Assembly: GCA_037388465.1 (NCBI GenBank)
Contig: JARRKE010000001.1
Location: forward strand, 7,667 to 71,666
DNA length: 64,000 nucleotides
Origin: Gammaproteobacteria bacterium
GTDB lineage: Bacteria > Pseudomonadota > Gammaproteobacteria > SpSt-1174
Direction of reading: 5' to 3'
Numbering within the stretch: the first letter of the stretch is position 1; each line of letters begins with the position of its first letter. The notes beneath the pieces are model-generated. The model was not told the origin of the DNA. It saw only the letters and a program-made list of their open reading frames with translations, and did not search any database. Below are positions 10,343 through 16,698 of this stretch, piece after piece. Made by a program: the position numbers and the translations under genes.

Positions 10343-11941
10343 TCAATCGAGATACTCGTAAGCCTTCAAGGTCAGGAAGTCCGGCAGCGTTTCGCTGTCG
10401 GTGATTTCGTCCAGTAGCCGTGCCGCCAGCGCGTAGTGTCCTTCCTCGTAGTTTTCTTCGCCGACTTCCTGGCGAATAACGCCCATTTCTTCCTCCAGCA
10501 GCTGCCGGAACAGCGCCAGCGTCACTTTGCGTCCATCGCTCAGCATGCCACCGGGATGGTGAATCCATTGCCAGATCTGCGAACGCGAGATCTCGGCCGT
10601 GGCCGCATCCTCCATCAGGTTGTGGATGGGCACGGCGCCGCGTCCGTCCAGCCAGGCGGCCATGTACTGGATGGCCACGTTGATGTTGGTACGCAGGCCC
10701 GTTTCGGTGATCTGTCCTTCGGGTACGGCCAGCAAGTCGTCGCGCGTCGGGTTCACGTCGGGGCGCTGGCGGTCGAGCTGGTTGGGCTGCGGCATGTGGG
10801 CGTTGAAGACCTCGAGCGCCAGCGGGACCAGGCCGGGATGGGCGACCCAGGTCCCGTCGTGACCGTCCTTCACCTCCCGCTCCTTGTCGGCGCGCACCTT
10901 GGCGAAGGCGGCTGTATTGGCCGCGTCGTCGCCCCTGATGGGGATCTGTGCCGCCATGCCGCCCATGGCGAAGGCGCCACGGCGGTGGCAGGTCTTGATG
11001 ACCAGCTGCGAGTAGGCGTGCATGAAAGGCACCGTCATGGTGACCTGGGCCCGGTCGGGCAGGATGCGGTCCGCATGCGCGCGCAGGGTCTTGATGTAGC
11101 TGAAGATGTAGTCCCAGCGCCCGCAATTGAGTCCTACGATGTGGTTCCGGAGCTCCCACAGGATCTCCTCGAGCTCGAACACGGCGGGCAGGGTCTCGAT
11201 CAGCACCGTCGCCTTGATGGTCCCGCGCGGGATGTCGAGCGCATCCTGGGAGTAGTTGAAGACGGCGTTCCACAACCGTGCTTCGCGGTGACTTTCCATC
11301 TTGGGCAGATAGAAATAGGGACCGGTGCCTTTGTCGATCAGGGCGTAGGCGTTGTGGAAGAAGTACAGTCCGAAATCGAACAGCGCACCCGGAATCGGCT
11401 TGCTGTGCACGCGCATGTGTTTCTCGGGCAGATGCCAGCCGCGCGGGCGCACCAGCAGTACCGCGGGATTGTCTGTCAGGCGGTATGCCTTGCCTTCCGG
11501 CGAGGTGAATTCGATGGTGCCGCGCACCGCATCACGCAGGTTGATCTGTCCTTCCAGGGTGTTGCGCCAGGTGGGGGAGTGCGCGTCCTCCAGGCAGGCC
11601 ATGAAGCAGCTCGCGCCGCTGTTCAGGGCGTTGATGACCATCTTGCGGTCCGTAGGCCCGGTGATTTCGACGCGGCGGTCCTGCAGATCGGCGGGTATGC
11701 TGCCGATGGTCCACTCGGATTCGCGGATTTCGCGGGTTTCCGGCAGAAAGTCGGGTAGCGCGCCGGCATCGAGGGGGACCTGGCGTTGCCGTCGTGCGTC
11801 GAGCACTCCGGCGACGTCGTCCGCGAACCGCTGGTGCAATTCAACCAGGAAATCGACGGCATCGGGTGTCAGGATATCCTCGAATTCCCTGACGGATTTC
11901 GTGAATTCATGGGCCGATGCAGCTGTGGTCGCTGTGCGCAT
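10343..11941 (-). CDS. aceB: Malate synthase A
   Basis: 532 aa. Contains the GLNCGRWDYIFS block, which I recall as characteristic of malate synthase A, and has the expected MS-A length. AGGAGGAG RBS upstream of the ATG at 11941. Confidence 0.9.
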   Translation of the reverse strand: MRTATTAASAHEFTKSVREFEDILTPDAVDFLVELHQRFADDVAGVLDARRQRQVPLDAGALPDFLPETREIRESEWTIGSIPADLQDRRVEITGPTDRKMVINALNSGASCFMACLEDAHSPTWRNTLEGQINLRDAVRGTIEFTSPEGKAYRLTDNPAVLLVRPRGWHLPEKHMRVHSKPIPGALFDFGLYFFHNAYALIDKGTGPYFYLPKMESHREARLWNAVFNYSQDALDIPRGTIKATVLIETLPAVFELEEILWELRNHIVGLNCGRWDYIFSYIKTLRAHADRILPDRAQVTMTVPFMHAYSQLVIKTCHRRGAFAMGGMAAQIPIRGDDAANTAAFAKVRADKEREVKDGHDGTWVAHPGLVPLALEVFNAHMPQPNQLDRQRPDVNPTRDDLLAVPEGQITETGLRTNINVAIQYMAAWLDGRGAVPIHNLMEDAATAEISRSQIWQWIHHPGGMLSDGRKVTLALFRQLLEEEMGVIRQEVGEENYEEGHYALAARLLDEITDSETLPDFLTLKAYEYLD

Positions 11942-12111
11942 GAGCCAGTCCTCCTCCGCTTGCCGCGGGGCCGGTGTTCCGGTCCCGCGTTTACCAACCG
12001 CCCGTGCCTGGATTTTTGTTATGGCGCGGGACTTTTATTTCTTTTCATTATTTATAGCCTCTATTCGTCCAACTGCCCCGGTAATTCCCGGTCGGATGCG
12101 CGGCCCGGTGC

Positions 12112-13458
12112 TCAAAGCGTCATCGCCCGGGCCGTGTCCTGAGCCCTGTGCAGCCGTCGGAAGACCTCGGCCAGGGCGCCGGCATCGCCGACGTTGCCGG
12201 GGAAAATGACCACCGGCAGTTCGGGATAGCGCGGGTGGTCCACAGGGCAGCGCACGACCGAGCAGCCGGTGAGGATCTGACCGACGACACGCGCGGCGCG
12301 CAGCGCGAGGCCGCTGCTCAGCACATCGTTGGAGGTGATTCCCCCTTTGCTGATCAGAAAGCCGATGGTCGGCGGCAGATTGCGCACCACATCCATCAGG
12401 AAGGCGGACACCCGTTCGCCGAAGGCGAGGCGTGTCTGTTGGTCGGCAAAGGTCTTTTCCACCCGGCTGGTGAAGATCACCGGGGTATCGCCGTGTCCGT
12501 GCGCCAGCGTCGTGCGCTCGACAATCTCTTCGAGCAGGGCTTCGCGGTCCGTGTCGATGCGCGCCACGTCGATCTCGATCGGTACCGTGCCGCGTTCCTT
12601 CAACAACTCGCCCAGCTGCTCGGTGGTTTTTTTGACGTGCGAGCCGACGATGACGGCACCCGGCCAGCCATCGCGTGCGTAGCGCGCCATGTCCTCGGGG
12701 GCGACCGGCTGGGGCGGCAGCTTGGCCAGCGCGGTGATGATGCTCGCCGCCGAGCGGAACAGAAAACGTTTGCCGCCGCCGGCCACCTCGAGGAGCTGAT
12801 CGGCGAAGCGATTCAGGTCGTCCTGCGTTTCGGCGTCCACCACGCAGCACACGTTGTCCTTGAGCTGCGAGAGGCGGGGACGCAGATCGCCACGCAGGTC
12901 GTTCAGCGTGAAGCGTTCCACCTGGCCGGCGTGAATACGACCGCGGGTTTTTTCTTCGACATAGTCAGGCAGGTAGCTGTGGTGATAGGCGAACACCGAG
13001 TCGCGCGCGAATTCGGTTTCGTGTGCGGGGACGGGTCTGCCGTCCATCACCACGTAATGCACGCTGTCGCGTGTGATGCGCCCGGCCTCGATGAACGCCG
13101 GCACGATGAAATGGGCGTCGAACGGTCCGAGTTCCTCGGCGATGACGTCCGTCTCCACCGGGTAATGGCCGCGCAGGGTGGAGTCCGAGCGGCTGATCAT
13201 CAACGGGTTGATGGGACGTCCGGTCTGCGCGAGTTCATCCAGGGCCCGCTTCAGGTTGTGGCAGACCTCGCGCGTGACGTGTTCGGCCTGGTCGGCGCCC
13301 ATGCCGCGGGTGTTGGTGAGTACGAAGAACAACGGCGAATCGTCCGTGAGGGCCTGCTTCAGGGTGCCGACGTCCCAACGGGTGAGCAGCAGGCAGCCAT
13401 GGACCGTCTGTGATCCGGTCGGGTCGTCGTCCAGGGCGATGATCTTGGTTTCGGCCAT
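12112..13458 (-). CDS. Four-carbon acid sugar kinase family protein (DUF1537/DUF4392; OtnK/DtnK-like)
   Basis: 448 aa. Motif order IIALDDDPTG .. RSDSTLRG .. FLISKGGITSND .. VVIFPGNVG mirrors the E. coli YgbK motifs IIADDFTG .. KIDSTFRG .. LFLTGGDIA .. VITKAGGFG. Exact substrate cannot be read from sequence. Confidence 0.7.
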   Translation of the reverse strand: MAETKIIALDDDPTGSQTVHGCLLLTRWDVGTLKQALTDDSPLFFVLTNTRGMGADQAEHVTREVCHNLKRALDELAQTGRPINPLMISRSDSTLRGHYPVETDVIAEELGPFDAHFIVPAFIEAGRITRDSVHYVVMDGRPVPAHETEFARDSVFAYHHSYLPDYVEEKTRGRIHAGQVERFTLNDLRGDLRPRLSQLKDNVCCVVDAETQDDLNRFADQLLEVAGGGKRFLFRSAASIITALAKLPPQPVAPEDMARYARDGWPGAVIVGSHVKKTTEQLGELLKERGTVPIEIDVARIDTDREALLEEIVERTTLAHGHGDTPVIFTSRVEKTFADQQTRLAFGERVSAFLMDVVRNLPPTIGFLISKGGITSNDVLSSGLALRAARVVGQILTGCSVVRCPVDHPRYPELPVVIFPGNVGDAGALAEVFRRLHRAQDTARAMTL

Positions 13459-15753: not shown

Positions 15754-15900
15754 GTCGGTGTCCTCGTCATCATATGAAACGGAAACGGCAGTGCCGTCGG
15801 GCATGACATGACCTTAGCCAAGGGTGTACTATTTCACAATATAGAAAGTATTTCGTATTATGGAATCTAGGCATCCGTCATATAGAATCGGTTTTGCATC

Positions 15901-16698
15901 ATGAAAAATGAGTCTGGAAAGTCCGCATCCTCCATTCAGGTCATCGATCGCATGGCTCTGCTGCTCGAGGCCATAGCCCGTTATACGGGACCGGTCAGCC
16001 TCAAGGTGCTGGCCGCCGAGACCGAACTGCATTCCTCCACCGCGTTCCGGATTCTGGCATCCCTGGTCGAGCATGGCTTCGTCGACCGGGAAGAGGGCGG
16101 CGGCTACCGTCTGGGGCGGCACCTGCTGCGGCTCGCGTCGCGCGTGCATCCCGGGATCGACATCCGGCAGGAGGCGCAGCCGATCATGGAGGCGTTGCGC
16201 GACCGGGTCGGAGAGAGCGTCAACCTGACCATTCGCGAAGGCGACGAGGTGATCTACGTGGAGCGCGCCACGCCGAACCGCATGATGCGGGTGGAGCAGG
16301 TGATTGGCAGCCGCGCCCCGCTGCACGTGACGGCGGTGGGCAAGCTCATGCTCGGGGCGGAGGGCGAGGAGGCGATCCGCGACTATGCGCGCCGCACGGG
16401 CCTGCCGGCCTACACCCCCAACACCCTCAACGATCCTGAGCGCCTGGGCCGCGCCGGCCTGCAGGCGATGGCGCAGGGCTACTCCTTCGATAACGAGGAG
16501 GCCGAGCTTGGCGTGGGATGCATCGGTGCGCTGGTGCGCGACGCGGCCGGCGTGCCGGTGGCGGGGTTGTCCATCTCCGCCCCCATCGAACGCCGGCGCG
16601 ACGAATGGGCAGCGATGCTGGTCGAGGCGGCCGATCGCATCTCCGAACGCCTCGGCTACAAAGGGGAAAAACGCGGCGAGGCGGCTACTGGGCTTTGA
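15901..16698 (+). CDS. IclR-family transcriptional regulator, divergent from the kinase/TK-like operon
   Basis: 265 aa. N-terminal wHTH (VIDRMALLLEAIARYTGPVSLKVLAAETELHSSTAFRILASLVEHGFV) and a C-terminal IclR effector domain. AT-rich divergent intergenic region at 15754-15900. Confidence 0.85.
   Translation: MKNESGKSASSIQVIDRMALLLEAIARYTGPVSLKVLAAETELHSSTAFRILASLVEHGFVDREEGGGYRLGRHLLRLASRVHPGIDIRQEAQPIMEALRDRVGESVNLTIREGDEVIYVERATPNRMMRVEQVIGSRAPLHVTAVGKLMLGAEGEEAIRDYARRTGLPAYTPNTLNDPERLGRAGLQAMAQGYSFDNEEAELGVGCIGALVRDAAGVPVAGLSISAPIERRRDEWAAMLVEAADRISERLGYKGEKRGEAATGL

Follow-up and report, generated by a model that had tools for sequence, protein, structure and literature searches.

The closest described counterparts of the gene cluster analysed here are found in pathways of C2 and C4 acid metabolism. 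The glycerate pathway operons of Escherichia coli (gcl-hyi-glxR-glxK) and Cupriavidus necator (gcl-hyi-tsr-ttuD) combine genes for a ThDP enzyme, a tartronate-semialdehyde reductase and a kinase with glycolate/glyoxylate genes, and C. necator salvages phosphoglycolate mainly through this operon (PMC7486775). The E. coli glcC-glcDEFGBA cluster has glycolate oxidase, GlcG and malate synthase under the control of a dedicated regulator. DUF1537 kinases with SBD_N and NBD_C domains are part of the tetronate pathways (LtnD/DenD-OtnI-OtnK-OtnC; DtnK-PdxA2; E. coli ygbJKLM), in which a beta-hydroxyacid dehydrogenase is encoded near the kinase. OtnK-type DUF1537 kinases act on compounds of the 3-oxo-tetronate class, and the annotation of E. 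coli ygbK agrees with this. On the enzyme level, the systems to compare are transketolase and the xylulose-5-P/fructose-6-P phosphoketolases (XFP), e.g., of Bifidobacterium longum (PDB 3AI7).

The window, i.e., the whole stretch of 64,000 nucleotides that was analysed, contains an IclR-controlled cluster with a divergent phosphoketolase-like ThDP enzyme, which is called PKL here (Table 1). An earlier note, made from the sequence alone, had described four open reading frames (malate synthase, kinase, ThDP enzyme, IclR regulator). It was verified that all coordinates and strands were correct, and lutABC, the TRAP transporter and the garR-like reductase were indeed found nearby on the same strand, with matching domains or families. 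The gene order is PKL-kinase-aceB-LutABC, and the same-strand run after malate synthase comprises LutA, LutB, LutC, DctP, a fused DctQM and tartronate-semialdehyde reductase. The scores were above the cutoffs for malate synthase (TIGR01344, 819 bits vs. 594), LutB (TIGR00273, 466 bits) and the reductase (TIGR01505, 367 bits vs. 340.75). A longer PKL reading frame from 15804 is less likely, because the ATG at 15753 has a GAGGA Shine-Dalgarno motif 7 nt upstream and the homologues have about 740 aa.

Table 1. Features of the PKL cluster in the window.
Feature	Position	Strand	Basis or remark
IclR-family regulator	15901..16698	+	HTH_IclR and IclR_C domains; divergent from PKL operon
Two putative operator-like palindromic boxes, TTTCRYATTRYGAAA type	15831..15866		IclR-PKL intergenic region
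PKL, divergent phosphoketolase-like ThDP enzyme, 742 aa	13525..15753	-	weak XFP, XFP_N and Transket_pyr matches
9-bp GC stem-loop without U tract	13489..13509	-	between the PKL and kinase genes
Divergent DUF1537 protein of the four-carbon acid-sugar kinase family, 448 aa	12112..13458	-	SBD_N and NBD_C
Malate synthase A (aceB)	10343..11941	-	TIGR01344
LutABC, 2-hydroxy-acid oxidising Fe-S complex	7422..10233	-	CCG; LUD and Fer4; LUD domains
LutA; LutB; LutC	9478-10233; 8051-9481; about 7422-8054	-	Pfam domains
Two related putative operator-like boxes, TTTCGCCATACGGAA	7331..7420		in ~26-nt direct repeats upstream of dctP
TRAP transporter	3743..7293	-	DctP 6061-7293; fused DctQM 3743-5971; Pfam domains
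Tartronate-semialdehyde reductase (2-hydroxy-3-oxopropionate reductase)	2821..3717	-	TIGR01505

PKL and a MAG protein with the annotation "phosphoketolase" have 100% identity. The phosphoketolase NCBIfam models yielded at most 99 bits with PKL at cutoffs of at least 777, the transketolase equivalog models at most 51 bits at cutoffs of at least 488, and in the Pfam scan the XFP_C match was under the threshold. The members of the PKL family are mutually 70–84% identical, with a single outlier at 55%. The canonical phosphoketolases follow with 19–30% identity and no more than 85 bits (18–23% identity in the comparison of PKL with XFP), and this score gap (895 to 85 bits) sets the family apart from all of them; by sequence comparison, the family is isolated. 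The AF2 model of PKL (pLDDT 86.5) has the three-domain ThDP fold of XFP with a TM score of 0.77, compared to 0.69 for transketolase, while the Foldseek E-values were similar for both. These results bear out the earlier view that PKL belongs neither to the canonical transketolases nor to the canonical phosphoketolases. The motifs quoted for it were all found (SGHPGG 79-84, GPLGQG 161-166, GDGGMGEP 187-194, NGY 220-222, GWTHQ 524-528), but GWTHQ had to be reassigned from a transketolase-like block, as NGWTHQ is the phosphoketolase form (HNGFSHQ). PKL shares the NGY and YESF blocks with XFP, but is about 60–80 residues shorter, has transketolase-type ThDP-binding motifs (GPLGQG, GDGG), and always occurs in the context of a DUF1537 kinase and glycolate genes. 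It has these motifs, SGHPGG and five active-site histidines in common with transketolase, but differs from it by an Asn at the Asp477 position, as in phosphoketolases, by the Tyr in the YESF block and by an N-terminal extension.

An active-site map revealed that 11 phosphoketolase residues are kept in PKL (His64, His97, His142, Gly155, His320, Glu479, Tyr501, Gln546, Asn549, His553, and Lys605, the distal anion-binding residue), including the phosphate-site Tyr and Asn. In phosphoketolases, H97, H142 and G155 have roles in dehydration and H64, Y501 and N549 in phosphate attack (PMC6435721). The two dehydration histidines are His109 and His148 of PKL. Other residues stand at the phosphoketolase-invariant positions G154, E156, E184, E437, S440, N441 and W544, and also at R545 and H548. 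Close to the cofactor, three acidic residues are lost (E156P, E184G, E437G), and an Arg is gained at H548; an anionic substrate would thus suit PKL. Ser440, which is Ala in PKL, presumably aligns with the phosphate-binding Ser of transketolase. His81 and His322 of PKL are equivalent to phosphoketolase His64 and His320, and we assume that their transketolase counterparts bind the C1 hydroxyl of the ketol donor.

The retained catalytic set, together with the nearest fold and profile matches, would be in accordance with a true phosphoketolase that forms acetyl phosphate from Calvin-cycle sugar phosphates, hydroxypyruvate or glycolaldehyde, the last of which is a known phosphoketolase substrate for this conversion (PMC6435721). 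Acetyl-CoA would then be gained without carbon loss and combined with glycolate-derived glyoxylate to malate, which would fit the gene order in the window, and the kinase would prepare or recycle the substrate. We regard this as improbable, because the score gap to all canonical phosphoketolases is large, E437, S440, N441, E156, E184 and W544 are altered, the invariably linked kinase would be left without a role, neither pta nor ackA was seen in the clusters, and malate synthase is missing in the other loci and reportedly also in Acidithiobacillales.

The kinase has the DUF1537 architecture (SBD_N 196 bits, NBD_C 128 bits in Pfam), and all significant PDB matches of its model (E ≤ 0.001) were DUF1537 structures, with 13–22% identity. 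It is only distantly related to characterized members, with 68 bits to the DtnK model (cutoff 450) and 26% identity to E. coli OtnK (YgbK; E = 7e-4). The kinase gene follows the PKL gene on the same strand in all 71 related loci with room for it, and an IclR orthologue is divergent and upstream of PKL in 64 of 70. The linkage of the three genes noticed in the window is therefore near-universal, and the PKL and DUF1537 kinase genes form a strongly conserved pair that is uncharacterised. A published description of the pair was not found in the literature, in line with the earlier note, which had proposed a candidate undescribed route. The two genes had also been called translationally adjacent; they are neighbours on the minus strand, but they are not translationally coupled, because a 66-bp spacer with a 9-bp GC hairpin separates them. 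Stable structures downstream of the PKL stop codon were also predicted in orthologous loci (MFE below -25 kcal/mol in 36 of 64, not composition-corrected).

The best NCBIfam match of the IclR regulator was BhcR, with a sub-cutoff score (163 bits, cutoff 350), and its best family matches (BhcR, IclR, AllR) are regulators of glyoxylate-linked operons. The operator-like palindrome has nine matches in the window, compared to 1.2 expected. A putative operator box is present in 56 of 66 orthologous IclR-PKL intergenic regions, and all strict boxes (n = 52) found across the loci, which total 1.31 Mb, are within this region; the conserved putative operator is confined to the shared IclR-PKL promoter region. 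A similar box was observed between the IclR and DctP genes of Thioalkalivibrio sulfidiphilus.

The neighbourhood places the module in glyoxylate metabolism, as had been proposed: GlcDEF or LutABC (LutAB) is encoded within 10 kb of PKL in 34 of 48 large loci, and in nine of the 48 LutABC is present in place of GlcDEF. GlcD of T. sulfidiphilus reached 885 bits at an equivalog cutoff of 897. Additional glyoxylate-linked neighbours are a GlcG/HbpS-like gene (12 loci) and a class-V aminotransferase gene (four loci), and transporters of the lactate/glycolate type also recur among the partners. GlcDEF and GlcG in the related loci and malate synthase in the window are features shared with the E. coli glc operon, which however has a regulator of the GntR instead of the IclR type and no counterpart of the PKL-kinase pair; in addition, malate synthase is of type A and occurs in the window only, where LutABC replaces GlcDEF. 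There are also differences from the glycerate pathway operons. Canonical Gcl or Hyi was found neither in any locus nor in the window, and thus PKL is the only ThDP enzyme of the cluster; it belongs to the TK/PK superfamily, in contrast to the POX/ALS-type Gcl, and the kinase is a DUF1537 protein instead of a class I or II glycerate kinase. The reductase is encoded in some clusters only (10 of 48 large loci), e.g., immediately 3′ of GlcF in Halothiobacillus (L077). It is of the GlxR type, with 50–52% identity to E. coli GlxR (50% for the window copy), while its orthologues in the related loci share about 31% identity with YgbJ/LtnD. A class-I glycerate kinase gene adjoins the cluster in L082.

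In contrast to the tetronate pathways, the partner of the kinase is a ThDP enzyme, and a class II aldolase (OtnC) homologue is missing from the window and from 87 related loci, as the earlier note had stated for the module. Homologues of LtnD, DenD and OtnI were likewise absent from the window and the related loci searched. DctP matched the lactate-binding protein TTHA0766 of Thermus thermophilus (PDB 2zzv) with 408 bits, and thus the binding protein of the TRAP transporter is similar to lactate binders and not to binders of C4 sugar acids; TRAP genes are also inside the PKL cluster in L001, L018, L026, L027, L028 and L042. As the identity of the kinase to OtnK is also low, there is no indication that a C4 acid sugar is imported.

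Malate synthase was found in none of 83 related loci, showing that it is a local, lineage-specific addition and not part of the conserved module. The gene follows a 170-bp AT-rich spacer, in which a promoter of its own could be located. Acidithiobacillus carries PKL-kinase-GlcDEF, although malate synthase is reportedly missing from Acidithiobacillales (PMC7486775), and thus glyoxylate needs another sink there. This bears on the route suggested in the earlier note, in which a C4 acid of the 3-oxo-tetronate type is first phosphorylated by the kinase, PKL cleaves the C2-C3 bond to glyoxylate and acetyl phosphate, possibly with elimination of the C4 phosphate in place of water, and malate synthase joins the products. 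The retained dehydration, phosphate-attack and Lys605-equivalent residues and the aceB gene immediately downstream in the window are compatible with it. It is nevertheless improbable, because aceB is not conserved, an enzyme making 3-oxo-tetronate was not found, the TRAP binding protein is of the lactate type, and obligate autotrophs are not known to us to have an obvious supply of C4 acid sugars. Glyoxylate formation is also less likely than glyoxylate consumption, because the conserved partner GlcDEF/LutABC already makes glyoxylate, for which no sink would be encoded.

In our preferred interpretation, the pair would use up glycolate-derived glyoxylate, either in a counterpart of the glycerate pathway or by ketol transfer onto glyoxylate. 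For the latter, PKL would move a ThDP-bound C2 ketol (from Xu5P, F6P, S7P or hydroxypyruvate) onto glyoxylate, yielding 3-oxo-tetronate (2,4-dihydroxy-3-oxobutanoate), which the kinase would phosphorylate at C4 like OtnK, and CO2 loss would lead to DHAP. The net reaction, Xu5P + glyoxylate + ATP to two triose phosphates + CO2, would not require a reductant and would be first order in glyoxylate. Both enzymes would perform family-typical chemistry with a product of the OtnK substrate class, both His residues assigned to the C1 hydroxyl of the ketol are kept, the ThDP motifs are of the transketolase type, the invariant oxidase-PKL-kinase core would nearly be enough, and the named hosts, most of which belong to taxa known for CO2 fixation by the Calvin cycle, would be accounted for. 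However, the Asn at the Asp477 position, the Ala at Ser440, the low scores with transketolase models, the distance of the kinase from OtnK, the lack of an OtnC-type decarboxylase in the 87 loci and the recurrent reductase, which would be left unexplained, make ketol transfer rather unlikely.

We tentatively favour, at less than even confidence, a glycerate-pathway-like salvage by an IclR-controlled operon for glycolate and glyoxylate, with PKL and the DUF1537 kinase as its invariant core. GlcDEF, or LutABC in the window, would oxidise glycolate to glyoxylate, on which PKL would form a C-C bond, preferably in a carboligase-type reaction to tartronate semialdehyde and CO2, and would thus take the place of glyoxylate carboligase without being homologous to it. 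The retained anion site (His81, Tyr481, Asn523, and the new Arg522) would hold the glyoxylate carboxylate in place of phosphate. Tartronate-semialdehyde reductase would form D-glycerate, the terminal hydroxyl of which would be phosphorylated by the kinase, and phosphoglycerate would enter the Calvin cycle. The malate synthase of the window would be a second, lineage-specific glyoxylate outlet, mirroring glcB of the E. coli glc operon. The carboligase reaction is weakened by the kept ketol and dehydration His residues, for which a glyoxylate carboligase would have no obvious use, and by the absence of the reductase from 38 of the 48 large clusters. Moreover, no DUF1537 kinase acting on C3 acids is known to us, and in one Acidithiobacillus locus the DUF1537 protein would be redundant as a glycerate kinase, because a conventional one is encoded beside the cluster.

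The likely role of the pair is the salvage of Rubisco-derived 2-phosphoglycolate and the re-use of glycolate. The Rubisco by-product that CO2-fixing bacteria recycle is toxic, and the pair, found in the glycolate/glyoxylate operons of CO2 fixers, may be a missing step in its recycling.

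It was verified that the four open reading frames described in the earlier note, coding for malate synthase A (aceB), a divergent DUF1537 kinase, a phosphoketolase-like ThDP enzyme (PKL) and an IclR-family regulator, are present at the positions and on the strands listed in the table. Next to the island that contains them lie thrS and pheT at one end and gdhA with a uvrB fragment at the other. The PKL and kinase genes had been described as translationally adjacent; however, a gap of 66 bp with a GC hairpin lies between them, and they are thus not translationally coupled. The hairpin is a perfect 9-bp GC stem-loop and has no U tract. 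In 36 of 64 loci the first 90 nt past the PKL stop codon had a minimum free energy below -25 kcal/mol, a figure without composition control. Judged from its sequence and position, the stem-loop may tune the relative expression of both genes. The aceB gene is preceded by an AT-rich spacer of 170 bp, which could hold a promoter of its own, and it may or may not be co-transcribed with the PKL and kinase genes. Scans for transcription units with sigma-70 promoter and intrinsic terminator patterns gave counts equal to chance. For the DctP protein encoded downstream, the score with the lactate-binding protein TTHA0766 of Thermus thermophilus was 408 bits, which points to a small 2-hydroxy-monocarboxylate like lactate or glycolate as putative ligand, not to erythronate or threonate, and leaves import of a C4 acid sugar unsupported. 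Elsewhere in the window, C1 metabolism of the organism is hinted at by genes for a formate-dehydrogenase-like protein, a PQQ-dependent dehydrogenase, a DUF6513 protein and a protein with a PTPS domain. Two TonB-dependent receptors near an Amidohydro_3 protein are apparently unrelated to PKL.

Features of the window and of selected related loci
Feature	Sequence	Position	Strand	Remark
Tartronate-semialdehyde reductase	window	2821-3717	-	closes the island; TIGR01505 equivalog passed, 367 bits (cutoff 340.75)
Direct repeats of ~26 nt (TTTTCGCCATACGGAAnCnnTGTCACAT), 73 bp apart	window	7331-7420		5' of dctP; each holds a related operator-like box
LutA, LutB, LutC, DctP, fused DctQM, then reductase	window, downstream		-	strand shared with PKL operon
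Malate synthase A	window	10343-11941	-	TIGR01344, 819 bits (cutoff 594)
DUF1537 kinase	window	12112-13458	-	SBD_N 196 bits, NBD_C 128 bits
Stem-loop between PKL and kinase	window	13489-13509	-	
PKL ThDP enzyme, 742 aa	window	13525-15753	-	same sequence as a MAG protein with the annotation 'phosphoketolase'
Two operator-like boxes	window	15831-15866		IclR-PKL intergenic region
IclR-family regulator	window	15901-16698	+	HTH_IclR and IclR_C
Large molybdopterin/2Fe-2S formate-dehydrogenase-like protein	window	24452-28498		
PQQ-dependent alcohol or methanol dehydrogenase	window	30059-31852		
TonB-dependent receptor	window	35440-37797		
TonB-dependent receptor	window	40578-42713		
Amidohydro_3 protein	window	44507-46438		
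PTPS-domain protein	window	54289-55521		
DUF6513 protein	window	61624-63027		
PKL operon, Gallionellaceae	L007	13707-21969		
Class-I glycerate kinase	L082	17373-18809	-	PF02595, 470 bits
Full-length family outlier P0121	L085	180-2423		
PKL and kinase with dihydroxyacetone and glycerol genes	L087	14276-22226		
PKL locus with GDPD gene	L088 (CP019434)	10001-13120		

PKL passed the Pfam cutoffs of XFP (44.5 bits, cutoff 22) and XFP_N (34.9 bits, cutoff 23.7); XFP_C stayed below its cutoff (17 versus 23.4 bits) and the match to Transket_pyr was weak (29 bits). The best scores with the NCBIfam models were 99 bits for phosphoketolases, with cutoffs of at least 777, and 51 bits for transketolases, with a cutoff of 488. 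The closest solved structure by sequence was a Bifidobacterium phosphoketolase (90 bits). To place the family, 1.84 billion cluster representatives were searched; PKL's own cluster was followed by a single full-length relative (55% identity, 895 bits) and by fragments, and canonical phosphoketolases reached at most 85 bits and 25-30% identity. By these scores, the PKL family is isolated from the canonical phosphoketolases. Its members share 68-84% identity across Beta-, Gamma- and Zetaproteobacteria and Acidithiobacillia. An AF2 model of PKL (pLDDT 86.5) had its best PDB match to the Bifidobacterium longum phosphoketolase 3ai7 (E = 1e-33, TM 0.77), and a three-domain phosphoketolase fold is thus predicted; transketolases matched with a TM of 0.69 and with E-values similar to those of the phosphoketolases.

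For a residue map, 21 PKL proteins and 15 canonical phosphoketolases were aligned with the B. longum sequence, which had been rebuilt from an HMMER alignment. All 21 PKL proteins retained H64, H97, H142, G155, H320, E479, Y501, Q546, N549, H553 and K605 (phosphoketolase numbering). Ten of the 14 catalytic residues were invariant and four were altered (E437G, S440A, H548R, Q321N). In phosphoketolases, H97, H142 and G155 serve dehydration, and H64, Y501 and N549 belong to the phosphate site (PMC6435721). Seven phosphoketolase-invariant residues were replaced in every PKL (G154A, E156P, E184G, E437G, S440A, N441S, W544L), and further differences were found at R545E and H548R. From this map, PKL is predicted to work as a catalyst of phosphoketolase type whose substrate pocket has been remodelled and made less acidic. 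Among the phosphate-binding residues of transketolase and phosphoketolase, which might show whether PKL takes a sugar phosphate, the candidate arginine (B. longum R413) varies even among canonical phosphoketolases. All motifs quoted in the earlier note were found in PKL, and its ThDP-binding motifs are of the transketolase type; the block GWTHQ, however, had been called transketolase-like and is instead the phosphoketolase form NGWTHQ. In contrast to transketolases, whose equivalog profiles PKL did not reach, it has Asn523 at the Asp477-type donor-binding position, as do phosphoketolases. The profile scores, the gap in the representative search and the changes of phosphoketolase-invariant residues agree in ruling out a canonical phosphoketolase or transketolase; the earlier note had likewise called the enzyme neither of the two. 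A plain acetyl-phosphate-forming phosphoketolase that would feed malate synthase is compatible with the largely retained catalytic set, and this reading is regarded as improbable.

The kinase has the SBD_N and NBD_C architecture, and its predicted fold matched only DUF1537 structures in the PDB at E <= 0.001 (E ~1e-14). With phmmer, the kinase had no match in the PDB, and its family profile gave merely 25 bits to 4XFR. It scored far below the cutoffs of the models for the characterised kinases DtnK (68 bits, cutoff 450) and OiaK (16 bits, cutoff 700), and was 26% identical to Escherichia coli YgbK/OtnK (E = 7e-4). At the sequence level it is remote from every characterised DUF1537 member. Its homologues have hosts and a degree of conservation (71-80% identity) that parallel those of the PKL family. 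In tblastn searches E. coli YgbL (OtnC) and YgbM (OtnI) had no match in either the window or the 87 related loci, in agreement with the earlier view that a class II aldolase partner is absent; YgbK had no match in the surveyed loci, and YgbJ matched only the reductase (~31% identity). Membership in a known tetronate pathway was ruled out, because OtnC and OtnI had no match in the window and these loci, the dehydrogenase resembles GlxR and the kinase lies far from OtnK.

The neighbourhood survey comprised the best 80 loci by similarity from contigs of one genome per species, mostly MAGs, and several more loci that were retrieved by exact-protein look-up; they were scored with tblastn and unbiased ORF clustering. 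The kinase gene was found 3' of PKL on the same strand in all 71 loci with at least 1.5 kb downstream, and thus the PKL orthologues are linked to DUF1537 kinases. An IclR gene was divergent and upstream in 64 of 70 loci, and in two further loci TRAP genes lie between. GlcDEF (glycolate oxidase) or LutAB, part of a 2-hydroxy-acid-oxidising complex, was encoded within 10 kb of PKL in 34 of the 48 loci of at least 15 kb (GlcDEF in 26, LutAB in 9); among these 48 loci the reductase was found in 10 and a CoA-acylating aldehyde dehydrogenase of the methylmalonate-semialdehyde dehydrogenase (MMSDH) type in 11. Other recurrent neighbours were a GlcG/HbpS-like protein (12 loci), a class-V aminotransferase (4 loci), an ABC transporter (in Gallionellaceae), TRAP transporters and a D-2-hydroxyacid dehydrogenase. 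Malate synthase, which had been counted as part of the module, was present in none of 83 related loci, and it was ruled out as a core component.

Several loci showed individual arrangements. In L007 and other Gallionellaceae, PKL and the kinase are followed by a LivK-type ABC transporter, the MMSDH-type enzyme, the reductase and the D-2-hydroxyacid dehydrogenase; in L007, the CoA-acylating MMSDH-type enzyme scored 729 bits with TIGR01722, and upstream of the operon are LutABC and a GlcG-like gene. In the closest long relative (L087, 83% identity), the PKL-kinase gap is 718 bp, and convergent genes for a PTS-dependent dihydroxyacetone kinase (dhaKLM), glpF, glpK and glpD follow the pair, a link to dihydroxyacetone that may be coincidental. 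Two loci are exceptions to the pairing. Acidihalobacter ferrooxydans has PKL and the divergent IclR gene, and its locus (L088) is the only genome locus seen with a glycerophosphodiester phosphodiesterase (GDPD) gene in the kinase's place. The only full-length family outlier (55% identity, L085) has no DUF1537 gene downstream, where a GntR-aminotransferase fusion regulator and a peptide-type ABC transporter are encoded; its upstream side is cut off.

The IclR protein has the HTH_IclR and IclR_C domains, a divergent position and a putative palindromic operator. It resembles BhcR, IclR and AllR and scored 163 bits with the BhcR equivalog, below the cutoff of 350. The palindromic box TTTCRYATTRYGAAA was common to 56 of 66 IclR-PKL intergenic regions. 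It is usually accompanied, at a distance of about 19 bp, by a second box, and was sometimes duplicated or triplicated (L003-L084). All 52 strict matches in the 1.31 Mb of loci lay in the IclR-PKL intergenic region. In the window, nine matches to operator-like boxes, at the PKL and dctP promoters, compare with 1.2 expected by chance, and Thioalkalivibrio sulfidiphilus has one box at the TRAP promoter and one at PKL. From these putative operators, the TRAP-reductase unit may be in the same regulon as the PKL operon.

It is very probable that the PKL-kinase pair belongs functionally to glycolate/glyoxylate handling, because its context comprises GlcDEF/GlcG, the reductase, the aminotransferase, malate synthase in the window and the BhcR/IclR/AllR-like regulator. 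The earlier note had proposed that the pair cleaves a C4 acid sugar to glyoxylate and a C2 unit, for which the largely retained phosphoketolase catalytic set could be adduced. We consider this model unlikely; a glyoxylate-consuming role is more coherent, because the conserved neighbour already makes glyoxylate, the clusters encode no other glyoxylate sink and Acidithiobacillales are reported to be without malate synthase (PMC7486775). The preferred interpretation, which is tentative, is that the pair is an analogue of the glycerate pathway. PKL would act as a carboligase that converts glyoxylate to tartronate semialdehyde, the reductase would form glycerate, and the DUF1537 protein would be a glycerate kinase. 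This interpretation is favored by the recurrence of a genuine reductase, the absence of Gcl and the loss of acidic residues from the PKL pocket; it is weakened by the conserved histidines that bind the ketol and by the small size of a C3 substrate. Compared with the known glycerate pathway, the reductase is matched (50-52% identity to E. coli GlxR, 50% in the window), but a POX/ALS-type Gcl was not found: E. coli Gcl had no tblastn match at E < 1e-5 in the window or any locus, and Hyi was likewise unmatched. A class-I glycerate kinase (query E. coli GlxK) was not found in the window, and the sole match among the loci was in L082, one Acidithiobacillus genome, where the gene is convergent and directly follows PKL-kinase-GlcDEF. 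It suggests that glycerate is one product of the pathway; the place of this enzyme beside the cluster also argues that the role of glycerate kinase need not fall to the DUF1537 protein.

The named hosts are Gallionella, Sideroxydans, Zetaproteobacteria, Thiobacillus, Sulfuriferula, Halothiobacillus, Acidithiobacillus, Thioalkalivibrio, Chromatiaceae, Ca. Thiosymbion and a Campylobacterota symbiont, most of which we take to be Calvin-cycle autotrophs. The restriction to autotroph taxa would fit a ketol transfer, in which PKL joins the ThDP-bound C2 unit of a Calvin-cycle ketose phosphate to glyoxylate, and the resulting 3-oxo-tetronate, precisely the class of substrate that OtnK uses, is trapped by the kinase and yields DHAP and CO2. 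As the phosphoketolase-type Asn523 and the missing decarboxylase speak against it, this route is rather doubtful, with a lower standing than the glycerate-pathway analogue. The probability left over by the four readings falls to other, unforeseen chemistry.

No paper describing the PKL-kinase module was found in a literature search that had most subscription journals outside its scope, and no characterised system was found to correspond to the PKL family, to the kinase subfamily or to the obligate pairing of both in glycolate operons. The parts belong to known superfamilies, and they represent a distinct phosphoketolase/transketolase-superfamily enzyme and a DUF1537 subfamily in a glyoxylate route that is probably new. 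The disposal of the Rubisco oxygenation product in chemolithoautotrophs has been experimentally solved in very few organisms, e.g., Cupriavidus necator (PMC7486775). Here, a two-gene unit whose annotation goes no further than 'phosphoketolase' and 'four-carbon acid sugar kinase' is tied to glycolate oxidase genes under its own regulator, and it is spread among iron and sulfur oxidisers, purple sulfur bacteria, Zetaproteobacteria and symbionts. If ketol transfer were true, it would be a hitherto unknown phosphoglycolate-salvage route specific to Calvin-cycle autotrophs, which would return glycolate carbon to the cycle in two enzymatic steps, without reductant and without the need for two glyoxylates to meet. 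If the pair processes glyoxylate, it would close a gap in how autotrophic carbon metabolism is modelled, extend the transketolase/phosphoketolase superfamily by a new type of reaction and DUF1537 by a new class of substrates, and provide parts for engineered photorespiratory bypasses.
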